Assembly (NCBI RefSeq): GCF_055900595.2
Contig: NZ_CM148325.1
Direction: 5' to 3' (one strand)
Length of the DNA: 64,000 bases
In this document: positions 5,834 to 48,008 of the stretch, in pieces
Layout: each line of letters begins with the position of its first letter
How positions within the stretch are numbered: position 1 is the stretch's first letter
Program-made: the position numbers and the translations under genes
Notes under the pieces: generated by a model
Told to the model about the DNA's origin: nothing
The model's input: the letters and a program-made list of their open reading frames with translations, nothing else
Database searches by the model: none

Positions 5834-6006
5834 GACTCTGTAGGAGATCGCCAGGAAATAAGCGAATACTTAAAAAGATAAGAATCGTTATTTTCATTTA
5901 AAATCAATATATTGCTTGTTAATTCCTAACTTTCATATGAAATTTTCCTTAAGGCATTGTCTGTAAGCGCCTTGTAAGACTTCGCGAAAAAGACGATTCT
6001 ATCTTC

Positions 6007-6370
6007 GTCGACAGGGAGTCAGACAACGAAGTGAACATCAGGATGATGACACTTCTGCAGGACACACCAGGAGGGTGTTTCAGGGAAAGGCTTCTGGATG
6101 AAGCGAAGAGGATGACGCAGGACGCGTTAAAGGACACCTCCAGGATGGAGAATGAGAACCGGTCAGGATGATTCGGTGGGTCAGGAAGGCCAGGGACACT
6201 TCAGGATGAAGTATCACATCGGGGTGGTGTGAGCAGGAAGCAATAGTTCAGGATGAACGATTGGCCGCAAGGCCAGAGGAAAAGTTGTCAAGGATGAGCA
6301 GGGAGCAACAAAAGTAGCTGGAATGCTGCGAAACGAACCGGGAGCACTGTGAATACAGTGCTCCCTTTTT
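6007..6370 (+). ncRNA. csrB: CsrB small RNA (CsrA-sequestering)
   Basis: About 360 nt with no long ORF, many CAGGATG/AGGA motifs spaced along it, ending in a GC stem plus T-run; 5' end approximate. Confidence 0.9.
6339..6370 (+). terminator. csrB intrinsic terminator
   Basis: Stem GGGAGCACTG / CAGTGCTCCC followed by TTTTT. Confidence 0.8.
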
Positions 6371-6371
6371 G

Positions 6372-7085
6372 TGCACAGAAAACCCCCAGCTAGGCTGGGG
6401 GTTCCGGAAAGCTTTCAGCTTTGAGCCAGTTATTAAAACCCCTTTTGATTTGTTAAAACACCTTGCGGTCTGGCAACTGCAAGTGTCAAACAAGAAATCA
6501 AAAGGGGGTCCCAATGGGGGACGAAAAGAGCTTAGCGCACACCCGCTGGAACTGTAAATATCACATAGTTTTTGCGCCGAAATACCGAAGACTGGCGTTT
6601 TACGGAGAGAAGCGTAGGGCGATAGGCAGTATTTTGAGAAAGCTGTGTGAGTGGAAAAGCGTACGGATTCTGGAAGCAGAGTGCTGCGCAGATCATATCC
6701 ATATGCTTGTGGAAATCCCACCCAAAATGAGCGTATCCGGCTTTATGGGATATCTGAAAGGGAAAAGCAGTCTGATGCTTTACGAGCAGTTTGGGGATTT
6801 GAAATTCAAATACAGAAACAGGGAGTTCTGGTGCCGAGGGTACTATGTCGATACGGTGGGTAAGAACACGGCGAAGATACAGGACTACATAAAGCACCAG
6901 CTTGAAGAGGATAAAATGGGGGAGCAGTTATCGATTCCATATCCGGGCAGCCCGTTTACGGGCCGTAAGTAACGAAGTTGAATGCAAATGTCAGATCGTA
7001 TGCGCCTGTTAGGGCGCGGCTGGTAACAGAGCCTTACAGGCGCATTTGAAAAACCTCCGGCTATGCCGGAGGATATTTATTTTTA
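6372..7085 (+). mobile_element. IS200-like insertion sequence (IS200/IS605 family); boundaries approximate
   Basis: About 710 bp unit holding a 152-aa Y1-transposase ORF, a perfect palindrome CCCCCAGCTAGGCTGGGGG at the left end and stem-loops at the right end; no inverted terminal repeats, as expected for IS200. Confidence 0.72.
6514..6972 (+). CDS. tnpA: IS200 transposase TnpA (HUH/Y1 type)
   Basis: MGDEKSLAHTRWNCKYHIVFAPKYRR...HIHMLVEIPPKMSVSGFMGYLKGKSS...; 152 aa from the internal Met of ORF 6463..6972. Confidence 0.9.
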   Translation: MGDEKSLAHTRWNCKYHIVFAPKYRRLAFYGEKRRAIGSILRKLCEWKSVRILEAECCADHIHMLVEIPPKMSVSGFMGYLKGKSSLMLYEQFGDLKFKYRNREFWCRGYYVDTVGKNTAKIQDYIKHQLEEDKMGEQLSIPYPGSPFTGRK

Positions 7086-7129
7086 TTCCTGCTATCCTTC
7101 GCGGCAGTTTTTCTTATTGAGGTTGCTTT

Positions 7130-7459
7130 ATGACCACTCATGACCGCGTTCGTCTCCAGTTGCAGGCGCTTGAAGCATTACTGCGTGAACATCAGCACTG
7201 GCGAAACGATGATCCTCAGCCGCATCAATTTAACAGTACCCAACCGTTCTTTATGGACACCATGGAACCACTGGAGTGGTTGCAATGGGTGCTGATCCCG
7301 CGAATGCACGATTTGTTAGATAATAACCAGCCATTACCGGGCGCTTTTGCTGTTGCACCCTATTATGAAATGGCGCTGGCGACGGACCATCCGCAACGCG
7401 CGCTTATTCTGGCTGAGCTGGAAAAACTGGATGCTCTTTTTGCGGATGATGCGAGCTGA
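7130..7459 (+). CDS. yqcC: DUF446 protein YqcC
   Basis: 109-aa ORF immediately upstream of truC with stop/start overlap. Confidence 0.8.
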   Translation: MTTHDRVRLQLQALEALLREHQHWRNDDPQPHQFNSTQPFFMDTMEPLEWLQWVLIPRMHDLLDNNQPLPGAFAVAPYYEMALATDHPQRALILAELEKLDALFADDAS

Positions 7460-9127: not shown

Positions 9128-10480
9128 ATGAGTTCTTTAAGTCAGGCTGCGAGCAGTGTGGAAAAACGCACGAATGCTCGTTACTGGATAGTGGTGATGT
9201 TGTTTATCGTCACATCCTTCAACTACGGCGACCGCGCTACGCTCTCTATCGCCGGTTCGGAAATGGCCAAAGATATCGGCCTTGATCCTGTGGGAATGGG
9301 CTATGTGTTCTCTGCCTTCTCATGGGCTTATGTTATCGGGCAGATCCCTGGTGGCTGGTTGCTGGATCGTTTTGGTTCAAAACGCGTCTACTTTTGGTCG
9401 ATCTTTATCTGGTCGATGTTTACCTTGCTGCAAGGCTTCGTCGATATCTTTAGTGGATTCGGCATTATCGTTGCCCTGTTTACGCTGCGCTTCCTGGTCG
9501 GGCTTGCTGAAGCGCCATCTTTCCCTGGCAACAGCCGCATTGTTGCGGCCTGGTTTCCGGCGCAGGAAAGGGGAACGGCGGTGTCGATTTTTAACTCCGC
9601 CCAATACTTCGCAACGGTGATCTTCGCGCCGATTATGGGCTGGCTGACTCATGAAGTGGGTTGGTCACATGTCTTCTTCTTCATGGGCGGTCTGGGCATT
9701 GTCATCAGCTTTATCTGGTTGAAAGTCATCCATGAGCCAAATCAACATCCGGGCGTAAATCAGAAAGAGCTGGAGTACATCGCCGCGGGTGGTGCGCTGA
9801 TCAATATGGATCAGCAAAATACCAAAGTTAAAGTGTCGTTCAGCGTGAAGTGGGGGCAGATCAAACAGCTGCTCGGGTCACGGATGATGATCGGCGTTTA
9901 TATCGGTCAGTACTGTATCAACGCCCTGACTTACTTCTTCATTACCTGGTTTCCGGTTTATCTGGTGCAGGCACGCGGGATGTCGATTCTGAAAGCGGGC
10001 TTTGTGGCTTCCGTACCGGCGGTTTGCGGTTTTATCGGCGGCGTGTTGGGGGGGATTATTTCAGACTGGCTGATGCGCCGCACAGGTTCGCTGAACATTG
10101 CGCGTAAAACACCGATCGTGATGGGCATGTTGCTATCAATGGTGATGGTGTTCTGTAACTACGTCAACGTTGAGTGGATGATCATCGGCTTTATGGCGCT
10201 GGCCTTCTTCGGTAAGGGCATTGGGGCGCTGGGTTGGGCAGTAATGGCAGATACCGCGCCAAAAGAGATCAGCGGTCTTTCCGGTGGCCTGTTCAATATG
10301 TTTGGTAACATTTCCGGTATCGTCACGCCAATCGCAATTGGTTATATCGTTGGCACGACTGGCTCCTTTAATGGGGCGCTGATTTATGTTGGTGTTCATG
10401 CCCTAATCGCGGTACTGAGCTACCTGGTGCTGGTGGGCGATATCAAGCGTATCGAGTTGAAACCTGTTGCGGGGCAATAA
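9128..10480 (+). CDS. gudP: Glucarate/galactarate MFS transporter
   Basis: 450-aa multi-pass ORF directly upstream of gudX and gudD. Confidence 0.88.
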
Positions 10481-13193: not shown

Positions 13194-13224
13194 CAAAACC
13201 GGCTCTGTCAGGAGCCGGTTTTTA
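13194..13224. terminator. Hairpin terminator between convergent gudD and barA
   Basis: AAAACCGGCTC-tgtcagg-GAGCCGGTTTTT, with A-run and T-run on either side. Confidence 0.65.
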
Positions 13225-13240
13225 CTGGATAACATATTTA

Positions 13241-15997
13241 TTACCCAAGAATTTTGCTGGCTTCGCGCGCTACATTATCCATCTCGTCCAACAGTTCCAG
13301 CAGCTCCGGCTCCAAATCTTCTTCTTTAGTACCGCTGCGTAGCTGTTGTTCGATCAGTTGGCAGAGATTCTTCATACGCGGCACACCGCTATAGCCGCAA
13401 CTGCCATGCAGTTTATGAATCAAATCAACCAGGCCTTCCGGGTTTTCTCCAACCAGCTGTTCCTCAACTTTGTTGCGAACTTCAGGCAGGAAATCGAGTA
13501 ACATTTGCAGCATATCGCGCGCTAAATCGGTTTTTCCTGCTGCCTGGCGTAGTGCCAGTTGCCAGTCGAGGGTCGCATTCGGGTTCACCACAATTTCATT
13601 GACTTCGGGGGTCACGACGCGAGAGGAAATACCGCTGCCAGGCTTGTAGCGCAACAGCAAATTATGCAATCGTTCTTCTTCAATCGGTTTCGCCAGATAA
13701 TCGCTCATCCCTGCGCCAAGCAGCTTCTCTTTTTGCCCGGCCATTGCATGCGCCGTTACCGCGATAACCGGCGTTTGTTGCTGATGTGGGAGCTGGTGGA
13801 TGAGTTCGCAGGCCCGAATTCCGTCCATGTCCGGCATTTGAATATCCATTAAGATCAGATCGAACGGCATCTGTTTCGCCCGTTCAACGGCCTGATGCCC
13901 GCTATCGCAAAGTTCCACATGTTGCACCATATCTTCCAGCAATGCGCCGATAAGTTTCAGGTTAGCGGGGTTGTCATCAACCGCCATGACTGTCATTGCC
14001 AGCTTACTTTCATCGGTTACAGGCAAAAGCGTGTTTTGTTTGTGATGACAAAATTCCGTCAGGGCAGGGAACAGGCGTGTAGGTGTTAATGGTTTCAGCA
14101 GACACGCGCCGATACCATCTTGCTTAAGTTTTTCAGCATTGACTTGTGCATGGCAAGGAAGTGCCAGCATCAGAAAATCGGTCATCGATACCGCTTTCGC
14201 TAATCGCTCATGTTGCATTGTTAGCGGCTCGCGGAAGGTCACCGCAATGCCTAATAACATCATGTCGTAATGCGCGGGAGGCAGCGCGGAGAACGTTGGG
14301 CTATAAACCACTTCCAGCGGCGTTTCACTTAAAATATCCAGCGTGCATTGCGCTGCTGCGGAGTTTGGTTCGACATAGGCCAGGCGCTTGCCGGCGAGGC
14401 ACTGGGTGGATGGCCCTTCGATAATAATGTTCGGATTCAGATCGAGATTAATGTGGAACCAGAAAGTTGAACCGCGATTCGGCTGGCTATGGAACGAAAT
14501 ATCGCCGCCCATTTCATTAACCAGTTTCTGTGTGATCACCAGCCCCAGCCCGGTGCCACCATGACGGCGGGAAATACTGGCATCAGCCTGTCGGAAGGCC
14601 TGGAATAAGCGCGATTGATCGCGTTCCGGAATACCAATGCCGGTATCCCGAATCTGCACTTCAATCTGCACTTTGGTATTACTCAGCGCACGTTTTTCTA
14701 CCAGAATATCAATGTTGCCATTCTCGGTGAATTTAATTGCATTCCCTACCAGGTTAGTGATGATTTGCTGTAATCGCAGTGGGTCGCCAATTACATTATC
14801 GGGCACGTCGCTCTTAATATTGAGCGTCAGTTCCAGCCCTTTATCGTGAGAAGAATGTGCCAGCAGGGTAACGACTTCATCCAGCGTGCTGCGTAGTGGG
14901 AATGGAATACTTTCCAGAATCAGCTTACCTGCTTCCAGTTTCGAGAAGTCGAGAACATCATTAATAATTGCCAGCAAATTATTTGCCGAACGTTCAATCG
15001 TATTCAGGTGATCGCGCTGCGTTGGTGTTAATTCTGTTTTCAGCGTCAGGCGGGTAAAGCCAATAACGCCATTGAGCGGAGTTCGCAGCTCGTGGGACAT
15101 ATTTGCCAGAAACTCAGACTTAATCCGCGCCGCTTCCTGGGCACGTTTTTTCGCCAGATCCAACTCAACGTTCTGAATTTCCATCTGCTCCAGCGTTTCA
15201 CGTAGATCGGACGTCGCCTGGTCGATATTGTGCTGCATCTCTTCGTGATAAGCTGCCAGCGACATTGCCATCGAGTTGATGCCATTTTTCAGCATATCCA
15301 GCTCGCCGAGCATAAATCCTTCCACTCGGCTGTCGAGTTGTCCGCGACGGATACGGTCGACGGTATTCACCATGTTGCGAATTGGACCGGTTACATCACG
15401 CATGAGTCGCCAGCCAAAAATAAGCGCAATACCGATACAAAACAGCATCATCACGCTGGAAATAAAGATCTCTTTATATTGCTGCAAGCGAACCGATTTT
15501 AGATCCAGTTCAAGCGCGATATATCCCAGCATATTTTGACTATTTTTGGCATCACTACTGGGCGATTCGTCGGGGGAATAACTCTCGGAAATAATTGGTG
15601 TGCGTAAGATCATAATATCACCGTCACGTGTGACAGTGAGCTGGCGAGGAAACGGCACGTTGCTGCCGAGCTGCATTGATGAGGGATCAAGATGAAAATT
15701 GGAGGTGACAAAGAGTCGGTTATTTTCATCATAAACCGAAATCGCGCGAACAATATCGGAATGGCGACGATGCAGTACGCTTATTAACTGACCGATAGAT
15801 TCGCGATTTTGCAGGCTCATGCCATATTCAGTAGAAACTGCAAGCGGCTCAATAATGCTGGCTCCGGCATCTTCCAGTTGACGCTGCAAGTCGTTATAGC
15901 GATGCACAACGAAAAAGATACTCAGCAATAAACCAATAAGGACGGTCGGTGCCAGGATCAGAATCATCATGCGTGCGCGCAGGCTGTAGTTGGTCAT
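13241..15997 (-). CDS. barA: Hybrid sensor histidine kinase BarA
   Basis: 918-aa ORF with N-terminal TM segments, HAMP, HisKA (HELRTPLN), receiver and HPt regions. Confidence 0.93.
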
Positions 15998-16053
15998 GGA
16001 GTTCCGTTATGGGACAATTAAGGTCACACTGTTAAATTGAGAAAGTCTCGCCA

Positions 16054-28137: not shown

Positions 28138-29466
28138 CTGAGAGATCCCCTCATAATTTCCCCAAAACGTAACCATGTGTGAATAGATTTTGAGTAAGCA
28201 GGGTTGCAGCCACGAGTGAGTCTTCCCTTGTTATTGTGTAGCCAGAATGCCGCAAAACTTCCATGCCTAAGCGAACTGTTGAGAGTACGTTTCGATTTCT
28301 GACTGTGTTAGCCTGGAAGTGCTTGTCCCAACCTTGTTTCTGAGCATGAACGCCCGCAAGCCAACATGTTAGTTGAAGCATCAGGGCGATTAGCAGCATG
28401 ATATCAAAACGCTCTGAGCTGCTCGTTCGGCTATGGCGTAGGCCTAGTCCGTAGGCAGGACTTTTCAAGTCTCGGAAGGTTTCTTCAATCTGCATTCGCT
28501 TCGAATAGATATTAACAAGTTGTTTGGGTGTTCGAATTTCAACAGGTAAGTTAGTTGCTAGAATCCATGGCTCCTTTGCCGACGCTGAGTAGATTTTAGG
28601 TGACGGGTGGTGACAATGAGTCCGTGTCGAGCGCTGATTTTTTCGGCCTTTAGAGCGAGATTTATACAATAGAATTTGGCATGAGATTGGATTGCTTTTA
28701 GTCAGCCTCTTATAGCCTAAAGTCTTTGAGTGACTAGATGACATATCATGTAAGTTGCTGATAGGTTTCCAGTTTTCCGCTCCTAGGTCTGCATATTGTA
28801 CTTTTCCTCTTACTCGACTTAACCAGTACCAACCCAGCTTCTCAACGGATTTATACCATGGCACTTTAAAGCCAGCATCACTGACAATGAGCGGTGTGGT
28901 GTTACTCGGTAGAATGCTCGCAAGGTCGGCTAGAAATTGGTCATGAGCTTTCTTTGAACATTGCTCTGAAAGCGGGAACGCTTTCTCATAAAGAGTAACA
29001 GAACGACCGTGTAGTGCGACTGAAGCTCGCAATACCATAAGCCGTTTTTGCTCACGGATATCAGACCAGTCAACAAGTACAATGGGCATCGTATTGCCCG
29101 AACAGATAAAGCTAGCATGCCAACGGTATACAGCGAGTCGCTCTTTGTGGAGGTGACGATTACCTAACAATCGGTCGATTCGTTTGATGTTATGTTTTGT
29201 TCTCGCTTTGGTTGGCAGGTTACGGCCAAGTTCGGTAAGAGTGAGAGTTTTACAGTCAAGTAAGGCGTGGCAAGCCAACGTTAAGCTGTTGAGTCGTTTT
29301 AAGTGTAATTCGGGGCAGAATTGGTAAAGAGAGTCGTGTAAAATATCGAGTTCGCACATTTTGTTGTCTGATTATTGATTTTTGGCGAAACCATTTGATC
29401 ATATGACAAGATGTGTATCCACCTTAACTTAATGATTTTTACCAAAATCATTAGGGGATTCATCAG
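28138..29466 (-). mobile_element. IS10 (IS4 family), complete 1329-bp copy
   Basis: Ends CTGAGAGATCCCCTCATAATTTCCCC (inside end) and, on the reverse strand, CTGATGAATCCCCTAATGATTTTGGT (outside end); exact length 1329 bp; 402-aa transposase; flanked by 9-bp direct repeat. Confidence 0.93.
28151..29359 (-). CDS. IS10 transposase
   Basis: 402-aa ORF MCELDILHDSLYQFCPELHLKRLNSLTLACHALLDCK... Confidence 0.93.
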   Translation of the reverse strand: MCELDILHDSLYQFCPELHLKRLNSLTLACHALLDCKTLTLTELGRNLPTKARTKHNIKRIDRLLGNRHLHKERLAVYRWHASFICSGNTMPIVLVDWSDIREQKRLMVLRASVALHGRSVTLYEKAFPLSEQCSKKAHDQFLADLASILPSNTTPLIVSDAGFKVPWYKSVEKLGWYWLSRVRGKVQYADLGAENWKPISNLHDMSSSHSKTLGYKRLTKSNPISCQILLYKSRSKGRKNQRSTRTHCHHPSPKIYSASAKEPWILATNLPVEIRTPKQLVNIYSKRMQIEETFRDLKSPAYGLGLRHSRTSSSERFDIMLLIALMLQLTCWLAGVHAQKQGWDKHFQANTVRNRNVLSTVRLGMEVLRHSGYTITREDSLVAATLLTQNLFTHGYVLGKL

Positions 29467-47593: not shown

Positions 47594-47855
47594 ATATTGC
47601 CGGATAAAATAAACGCCTCTGTCAGAAATGATGGGGCGTTTTTATTTTGCGAGCAGCATTCCGGCATTTAAACGTGAATATAGCAAGGGAAATCAACAGT
47701 TATAGAATGGCGTCGGGTGCTTGAGGCTGTCTGGCGTTGAGCATTCGCGAGGTTCCAGATGGACAAAAGCCCCAGGCGATATTTCTATCAACCTGAGGCT
47801 CGCGTTCGAACGTAGCAATTCGGATGTTAGTCTCTTCTTTGCAGGGAGGCAAGAC

Positions 47856-48008
47856 ATGCTGACAAAATATGCCCTTGTGGCAATCATCGTACTGTGTTGT
47901 ACAGTACTGGGATTCACGCTGATGGTAGGCGACTCGTTGTGTGAGTTGAGTATCAGAGAACGTGGTATGGAGTTTAAGGCAGTTCTCGCTTACGAATCGA
48001 AGAAGTAG
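47856..48008 (+). CDS. Hok/Gef-family type I toxin peptide (hokX-like)
   Basis: 50 aa [50 protein letters not shown]: one TM helix plus Hok C-terminal signature; GGGAGG RBS at 47844; GC hairpin ACGCGGGGGTAAAACCCCGCGT follows the stop. Confidence 0.7.

Follow-up and report, generated by a model that had tools for sequence, protein, structure and literature searches.

INTRODUCTION

IS200 of Salmonella and IS200C of Escherichia coli are insertion sequences of about 707 to 711 bp with a sole gene, tnpA, that encodes a protein of 152 aa. A terminator hairpin lies at nucleotides 11 to 33 of their left end (12 to 34 in the Salmonella numbering), a stem-loop in the 5' untranslated region (5'UTR), known as STnc490, sequesters the SD sequence, and the right end carries a further hairpin. 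There are no terminal inverted repeats, and insertion produces no target duplication. The left-end hairpin is described as terminating transcription strongly in both directions and as halting about 85% of the transcripts that run into it (PMC5435999, PMC4513863), and in the laboratory IS200 is reported to be nearly immobile (PMC4513863).

IS608 of Helicobacter pylori and ISDra2 of Deinococcus have a homologous TnpA and subterminal hairpins, and they too insert 3' of a short specific sequence without duplicating it. They also prefer the lagging-strand template, as the IS200/IS605 family does (PMC5027513). For IS608, the target TTAC is read by AAAG, a guide located 5' of the foot of the left-end (LE) hairpin (PMC5027513), and a hairpin at the target is no part of the model. 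Unlike IS200, both of these elements also carry tnpB, and in place of a T-run they target TTAC and TTGAT. In IS200, by contrast, no more than 10 nt separate the left hairpin from the end of the element, and both ends also serve as transcription terminators.

IS1541 of Yersinia pestis and Yersinia pseudotuberculosis is a close relative within the IS200 group and has the same left end. It differs from the element described here in its host and in its much higher copy number (30 to 50 or more), a comparison that did not extend to its sequence in detail. In Y. pestis, IS1541 reportedly lies downstream of genes, beside stem-loops that resemble rho-independent terminators, and Odaert et al. are said to have proposed these as hot spots in 1998. 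RAYT (TnpA-REP) proteins also act on hairpin-forming DNA and have a distantly related Y1 HUH fold (PMC3333891).

Here we describe an IS200 copy in a 64,000-nucleotide stretch of DNA (the window). It has all of the structural features listed above for IS200 and IS200C, differs from IS200C at 27 of 711 nucleotides (about 4%), and lies within the T-run of the csrB terminator. The CsrB RNA titrates the global regulator CsrA.

RESULTS

The unit beside csrB has the anatomy of IS200

The features of the element, all on the plus strand, are as follows.

6371 to 7081, plus strand: IS200 element, 711-bp core, GTGCACAG...ATATTTATT (alignment to other copies; filled/empty pair at gadC)
6377 to 6380, plus strand: A-rich tetranucleotide AGAA, putative left guide, directly 5' of the left hairpin foot (from its position, by analogy with IS608)
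6381 to 6403, plus strand: left-end subterminal hairpin with a 10-bp stem and 3-nt loop, AACCCCCAGC-TAG-GCTGGGGGTT (DNA fold of -11.7 kcal/mol, z -4.0)
6439 to 6507, plus strand: 5'UTR stem-loop sequestering the ribosome-binding site, in the 5'tnpA/art200 sRNA region (Rfam; RNA fold; PMC4513863)
6514 to 6972, plus strand: tnpA, intact, encoding a 152-aa Y1 HUH transposase (Pfam, NCBIfam; RefSeq WP_000502112.1)
about 6996 to 7049, plus strand: internal imperfect right-end stem-loop, with a 10-bp core pairing 7000 to 7009 with 7036 to 7045 (DNA fold)
7050 to 7053, plus strand: A-run AAAA, putative right guide, directly 5' of the right hairpin foot (by analogy with the IS608 right guide)
7054 to 7072, plus strand: right-end subterminal hairpin CCTCCGGCTATGCCGGAGG, 8-bp stem and 3-nt loop (DNA fold of -10.0 kcal/mol, z -3.6)
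7073 to 7081, plus strand: right-end tail ATATTTATT; its final TTATT closes the element, and T's follow (right-flank divergence among copies)

The original prediction had placed a unit of about 710 bp directly after the csrB T-run. We aligned other IS200 copies and a filled/empty pair at gadC, and this fixed the ends as GTGCACAG...GGAGGATATTTATT, 711 bp apart and without target duplication. Both the abutment and the size therefore stood, and only the borders moved: the first base is G6371 rather than 6372, and the core ends at 7081. At gadC, the sequence is CCCTTTTTCGTGC without the element and CCCTTTTT[GTGCAC..TTATT]CGTGC with it. Spelled out through the terminator, these are CGCTCCC TTTTT CGTGCTTGC when empty and CGCTCCC TTTTT [GTGCACAG...GGAGGATATTTATT] CGTGCTTGC when filled. 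The distance between the ends was 711 bp in all six E. coli copies examined, and the right flanks diverged straight after TTATT, reading CGTGC at gadC and CTGAG and GTTTT at two other loci (L026 and L015, respectively). On inspection, the two termini, GTGCACAG... and ...ATATTTATT, do not form inverted repeats. Each end motif (a 23-mer and a 26-mer, with 0 matches expected in shuffled sequence) occurs once in the 64-kb window, which holds no second IS200 copy.

Ten bases, GTGCACAGAA, precede the left hairpin. This hairpin had been described as a perfect 19-nt palindrome at 6389 to 6407. The structure is real and has a 19-nt GC core (6383 to 6401), but it lies some 6 to 8 nt further left and, with a TAG loop between its inverted arms, it is no palindrome in the strict sense. 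It is also the first helix of Rfam STnc490 (RF01405), which matched at full length at 6381 to 6504 with 146.4 bits. Folding 6410 to 6530 as RNA gave -43.8 kcal/mol (z -4.5) with the SD paired, in agreement with the published structure. The long imperfect stem-loop and the terminator-like hairpin that had been noted at the right end both appeared in DNA folds, in which 6985 to 7081 reached -24.2 kcal/mol (z -5.1), and a terminator scan scored the right-end hairpin as terminator-like on both strands. Both subterminal hairpins move with the element: they accompany it at the ompX, gadC and ykgR sites and in other genera.

The assignment of the 152-aa product to the IS200 Y1 transposases was borne out. 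TnpA matched Pfam Y1_Tnp (PF01797) with an E value of 9.1e-37 over model positions 2 to 121 of 121, and it matched the NCBIfam equivalog transpos_IS200 at 2e-42 and 144.4 bits against a cutoff of 55. RefSeq labels the matching CDS "IS200/IS605 family transposase." Homologues in the PDB were the Sulfolobus protein 2EC2 (2e-23), IS608 TnpA (2A6M; 3e-19) and 2XM3 (5e-16). The HUH motif is H61-I-H63 and the catalytic tyrosine is Y125; these residues align to the HIH motif and the catalytic-helix tyrosine of 2EC2. Y125F is the catalytic-dead mutant of IS200 TnpA (Ellis 2015, PMC4513863).

Might the protein instead belong with RAYT/TnpA-REP? We rejected this assignment: the REP_Tyr_transpos model reached 30 bits against a cutoff of 80, and on either side lie the csrB terminator and the yqcC leader, with no REP or BIME sequences. 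Unlike RAYT, moreover, the window element is multicopy and mobile. Of the features that define the IS200 group within the IS200/IS605 family, all those open to a test by sequence were present. The element is an already annotated subtype, about 4% from IS200C; what is uncommon is its site, and the phenomenon itself is known.

The element splits the T-run of the csrB terminator

The surrounding features, again all on the plus strand, are as follows.

6016 to 6375, plus strand: csrB sRNA gene (Rfam RF00018, 373.6 bits, E value of 1e-109, full-length model, 1 to 356)
6340 to 6365, plus strand: csrB intrinsic terminator hairpin, 11-bp stem and 4-nt loop (terminator scan; DNA fold of -13.2 kcal/mol, z -8.6)
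6366 to 6370, plus strand: left piece of the split csrB T-run (T5), the target 5' of the IS left end (empty-site comparison)
7082 to 7084, plus strand: TTT left over from the csrB T-run on the right, before native ATTCC (empty-site comparison)
7130 to 7459, plus strand: yqcC, first gene of yqcC-truC-yqcA, with its ATG at 7130 (ORF list; RefSeq annotation)

Native csrB ends in the T-run, and the last 5 positions of its Rfam match already lie inside the IS. The window also contains barA.

A 1.6-kb query across the locus matched 5,425 of 5,426 complete E. coli genomes. Empty csrB-yqcC sites read ...GTGCTCCC TTTTTTT ATTCC in UTI89, B379, TOE51 and about 5,400 others, with neither stem-loop present; a longer reading from UTI89, B379 and TOE51 is ...ACAGTGCTCCC TTTTTTT ATTCCTGCTAT... 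The IS was found at csrB in 11 of the 5,426 genomes (0.2%), and the empty sites are 712 bp shorter. The insertion pushes yqcC about 712 bp from csrB: the distance between the csrB terminator and the yqcC start codon is about 57 nt in empty sites but about 770 nt in the window. That IS200 is absent from K-12 proved correct, W3110 and DH5alpha each matching at one place only, which is the flank. We found no report of an IS200 insertion at csrB in the literature searched.

In the window, the core is flanked by 5 plus 3 T's, 8 in all, against 7 in every empty allele found. Accordingly, the net gain over the empty sites is 712 bp for a 711-bp core, and one flanking T (6370 or 7082) is ambiguous. 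Perhaps the ancestral allele had 8 T's? A synthetic query for such an empty allele matched none of 5,413 empty sites perfectly; the best hits reached 199/200 and had 7 T's. The extra T could stem from cleavage one base off within the T-run (of donor or target), from slippage, or from a flanking T carried over with the element. An extra T in a homopolymer is not the duplication of a defined target. The filled ompX allele also has one extra T, located in the T-run before a G and not beside the IS.

The element had further been said to insert beside hairpins without duplicating its target. The lack of duplication is exact in two filled/empty pairs, gadC and B20105/TOE51. The family rule, however, is insertion 3' of a short specific sequence rather than beside a hairpin. 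For IS200 this sequence is, to judge from the flanks described below, a T-run, and a terminator hairpin precedes it in nearly every case.

We conclude with considerable confidence that the unit is a complete, probably transposition-competent IS200 that was placed in the csrB terminator T-run by single-strand peel-and-paste; the argument is one from sequence.

Nearly all IS200 copies lie behind terminators at TTNTT

An exact-match scan with the 30-nt left end, one genome per species, returned 26 loci in Citrobacter, Brenneria, Kluyvera, Pluralibacter, Mangrovibacter, Entomohabitans, Kosakonia, Yersinia and other genera. The Yersinia pekkanenii copy (L033) has the identical 30-nt LE and follows a hairpin and T7. 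In E. coli, one copy lies in the ompX terminator (left flank GGCGGATTTTTTGTT) and one in the gadC terminator (left flank CGCTCCCTTTTT), each flank ending at the IS, and another follows a hairpin and T-run upstream of ykgR. The pooled set comprised 29 distinct IS200 left flanks from Enterobacterales.

A GC-rich hairpin with a T-run ending at the IS was present in 28 of the 29 left flanks (97%), and its stem was at least 9 bp long in 26 (90%). The five bases before the IS were T in 28, T in 27, T in 22 (otherwise A in 4, G in 2 and C in 1), T in 29 and T in 29, giving TTNTT at the insertion point with T invariant at -1 and -2. By a hand count from the flank table, insertion occurred 5 to 10 nt past the last G or C of the stem. 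Background frequencies of hairpins before TTNTT, scored by the same criterion, were as follows.

All TTNTT sites in the window: any hairpin at 66 of 846 (7.8%); stem of at least 9 bp at 14 of 846 (1.7%)
Non-coding TTNTT sites in the window: any hairpin at 15 of 166 (9%); stem of at least 9 bp at 3 of 166 (1.8%)
Non-coding TTNTT sites at the other-species loci: any hairpin at 82 of 559 (15%); stem of at least 9 bp at 36 of 559 (6.4%)

With 28 of 29 flanks set against a non-coding background of 9 to 15%, abutment to the csrB terminator is the rule for IS200 and no peculiarity of this locus.

The association with terminators has itself already been reported at the family level. A preprint found that the over-representation of terminator-like sequences is strongest immediately upstream of IS200/IS605 elements, and it reads the upstream terminator as a context that limits transposase expression and favors persistence of the IS (10.1101/2025.07.22.666184). 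A literature search for explicit statements that IS200 targets terminators turned up this preprint only.

What could draw the element to these sites? We tentatively propose that enterobacterial IS200 may read intrinsic terminators as structure plus sequence, a GC hairpin with TTNTT 5 to 10 nt later; the idea is more likely wrong than right. Three reasons are possible. A terminator resembles the right end of IS200, which is itself a hairpin with a 9-nt T-rich tail, ATATTTATT. The hairpin might present the T-run and keep it accessible in single-stranded DNA on the lagging-strand template. Finally, RNA polymerase pausing at the U-tract might expose the non-template T-run. If terminators are indeed targeted, IS200 would be a "safe-harbor" transposon that settles behind them, which would account for its being both harmless and transcriptionally silent, and recurrent independent hits would be expected, such as the two in the csrB T-run described below.

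Alternatively, IS200 might need only a short T-rich target, with insertions away from terminators, in genes or promoters, being purged by selection. Insertions of IS200 and IS1541 within genes are known under selection (hisD984, inv), and these count for such a reading. So does the family paradigm, in which a tetra- or pentanucleotide target suffices (PMC5027513), as does the interpretation of upstream terminators as a persistence-favoring context (10.1101/2025.07.22.666184). Selection for harmless sites probably contributes to the enrichment. As the sole explanation, however, we consider it unlikely: a hairpin precedes only 9 to 15% of non-coding TTNTT sites (2 to 6% for stems of at least 9 bp) against the 97% (90%) seen for IS200, two independent hits fell inside one 7-nt T-run, and copies that are 100% identical, and hence recent, are already at terminators.

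Likely consequences for csrB, tnpA and yqcC-truC-yqcA

The original prediction raised the possibility that the insertion affects csrB 3'-end formation or read-through into yqcC-truC-yqcA, and effects on the csrB 3' end and on expression of the operon are plausible. The csrB U-tract is now UUUUUGUG (U5-GUG) instead of U7. The terminator hairpin is kept, its stem intact, and it dominates the predicted RNA fold of the csrB-IS junction. Any csrB read-through would likely meet the IS200 left-end terminator 10 nt downstream. Behind two terminators, tnpA is likely silent, and its translation would in addition be blocked by the SD-sequestering stem, which is predicted to fold as published (PMC4513863). 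For its part, yqcC-truC-yqcA has likely been shifted about 0.7 kb from whatever transcription formerly arrived across csrB.

Perhaps, then, the insertion was kept because it is useful, altering CsrB 3'-end formation or stability or rewiring yqcC-truC-yqcA, and is not a neutral passenger? The shortening of the U-tract from 7 to 5 would fit this idea, as would the closeness of the operon start to the terminator in empty sites, combined with the finding that a scan of 5900 to 7300 for an outward IS promoter or a yqcC promoter detected no sigma-70-like promoter. The window-type allele is moreover present in 8 genomes, from dog and human isolates, and IS200 5'UTR RNAs regulate the host in Salmonella (PMC5435999; 10.1101/2024.06.26.600842). 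Against this stand the great rarity of the allele, found in 0.2% of genomes, an undisrupted csrB terminator stem that is predicted still to fold, and a general target preference that accounts fully for the placement. We therefore judge a useful insertion to be improbable.

Two IS200 subtypes at adjacent T's of one tract

IS200 matches occurred at 10,274 places in 2,644 of the 5,426 complete E. coli genomes. Queried with the junction, the carriers of the csrB insertion gave 15 to 26 places per record, the csrB locus itself counted as one. A copy in the same lineage, at the ompX terminator (L003), shares 100% identity with the window element, which differs from IS200C-type copies at 27 of 711 nucleotides (about 96% identity).

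The 11 carriers fell into two groups. Eight records have the left junction of the window; seven of these are 100% identical to the window and one is 99.6% identical. For one of the complete genomes, NZ_CP098223.1 (strain Z0117EC0005, from a dog in Korea), the identity to the window is 100% over 1.6 kb around the insertion. A 1,338-bp IS10-type insertion upstream of queE is present in the window and absent from NZ_CP098223.1, and its junction was matched by no complete genome in the collection.

The second group consists of B20105 and two assemblies of strain 405. These read T6[IS]T, the sum of which equals the T7 of the empty site, so that the B20105 element sits one T further along than that of the window. 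It is of the IS200C type, with its 27 differences from the window copy spread over the whole IS. The flanks of B20105 show 0 differences in 918 from the empty-site strain TOE51 and 15 in 918 from the window lineage. The simplest reading of these sequences would be two separate insertions, by two IS200 subtypes, at adjacent T's of one 7-nt tract.

Could a single ancient insertion instead have diverged later, through gene conversion among IS200 copies and slippage of the T-run? Both alleles lie in the same T-run in the same orientation, homopolymer length is labile, and IS copies can convert one another. Nevertheless, we find this very improbable: the B20105 flanks match a strain with an empty site and not the window lineage, the 27 differences are scattered along the entire element, and with carriers at only 11 of 5,426 genomes, one old insertion would require very many precise losses. 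Two separate insertions are thus the reading that we retain.

There remains the scenario in which the stem-loops are native to the spacer between csrB and yqcC, with the transposase ORF a stray remnant that lacks element ends. That spacer does contain a terminator, as a general fact, but the chance of this scenario is close to nil, as more than 5,400 empty sites join CCC-T7 directly to ATTCC and lack both hairpins, which hence belong to the element with which they travel, and the ORF retains its whole length and the catalytic residues.

DISCUSSION

The sequences suggest how the element may have arrived. TnpA would excise the top strand of a donor copy as a single-stranded DNA circle. The circle would then integrate 3' of a T-rich pentanucleotide, in a strand that is single-stranded on the lagging-strand template. 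By analogy with IS608, the T-run would probably be read by A-rich bases just 5' of the foot of the left hairpin. The neighboring terminator hairpin might help to present the T-run, or it might mimic the right end of the element itself.

Several observations bear on this scheme. At the cleavage points, the target reads TTNTT and the right end TTATT. The feet of the two hairpins are preceded on their 5' side by AGAA and AAAA, and A-rich guides facing T-rich cleavage sites would fit the family model, as we infer from IS608. GC skew on the plus strand is positive in all eight 8-kb bins of the window, which places the top strand of the IS, the sense strand of csrB, on the lagging-strand template. 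This orientation is consistent with the family rule, at a single locus.

As a rare polymorphism of a well-known and annotated IS, the csrB insertion carries little weight for the locus. It is of use as a lineage marker, and it calls for caution where the 3' end of csrB and the promoter region of yqcC-truC-yqcA are annotated in strains that carry it. The insertion would gain in importance if the level or 3' end of CsrB, or the expression of truC or yqcA, turned out to be altered by the shorter U-tract or by the shift of 0.7 kb. Of some value for understanding target choice is a by-product of the analysis: 28 of 29 copies abut terminator hairpins at TTNTT, and one T-run took two hits. This bears on how the TnpA-only IS200 group chooses its targets and on why IS200 is so benign.

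Strand of the STnc490 match

The Rfam STnc490 model (RF01405) matched the csrB-linked IS200 element at 6381..6504 on the + strand, which is the tnpA-sense strand, and the match includes the left-end terminator hairpin. STnc490/art200 has been described as an antisense RNA to the tnpA 5'UTR (Ellis et al. 2015, PMC4513863). Since the match lies on the opposite strand to that described for art200, the Rfam model seems to capture the sense-strand structure of the 5' tnpA region rather than art200 itself.

Flanks of IS200 insertions

At both the csrB site and the ompX terminator site (L003), we observed that alleles filled by the window-type IS200 carry one more T than the sampled empty alleles. 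The T's at csrB, of which 7082..7084 are those to the right of the element, total 8 when the site is filled and 7 when it is empty. At ompX the run preceding G is T6 in the filled allele and T5 in the empty one. The extra T may reflect lineage polymorphism, slippage or imprecise cleavage.

Two other IS200 loci, one in Citrobacter braakii (L020) and one in a metagenome-assembled genome (MAG) labelled uncultured Raoultella (L032), have identical left flanks over 40 nt. The two genomes are assigned to different genera. Such identity points to a locus common to both, to a wrong label on the MAG or to horizontal transfer of the DNA next to the element.

Other elements in the window

An IS10-type element occupies approximately 28138..29466 on the - strand, about 100 bp upstream of queE:

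28151..29359, - strand: IS10-type transposase ORF, 402 aa
29352..29421: full-length RNA-OUT match (97 bits), within the element
29444..29466: outside end of the - strand element, CTGATGAATCCCC...
29567: queE start ATG

At this site the window has 1,338 bp more than the related E. coli record NZ_CP098223.1, with which it is otherwise collinear; this length equals the sum of an IS10 (1,329 bp) and a duplication of 9 bp. The junction upstream of queE occurs in none of the complete E. coli genomes of the collection.

At 47715..47871 on the + strand, the Rfam model of the sok antitoxin is matched over its full length (103 bits). The match corresponds to an annotated Hok/Gef gene in NZ_CP098223.1, where that gene adjoins both the IS4-like transposase of IS421 and a cas3 with a frameshift. 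This is a chromosomal hok/sok locus that has an IS as its neighbour and lies next to a type I-E CRISPR-Cas region in decay.

Proximity of barA to csrB

The BarA-UvrY system, of which barA encodes the sensor kinase, activates csrB transcription. Collinearity with NZ_CP098223.1 (3733677..3736433) places barA at ~13200..16000, only ~7 kb downstream of csrB and, like it, in the window. This position is normal E. coli synteny. The proximity of barA is relevant to any study of csrB expression.
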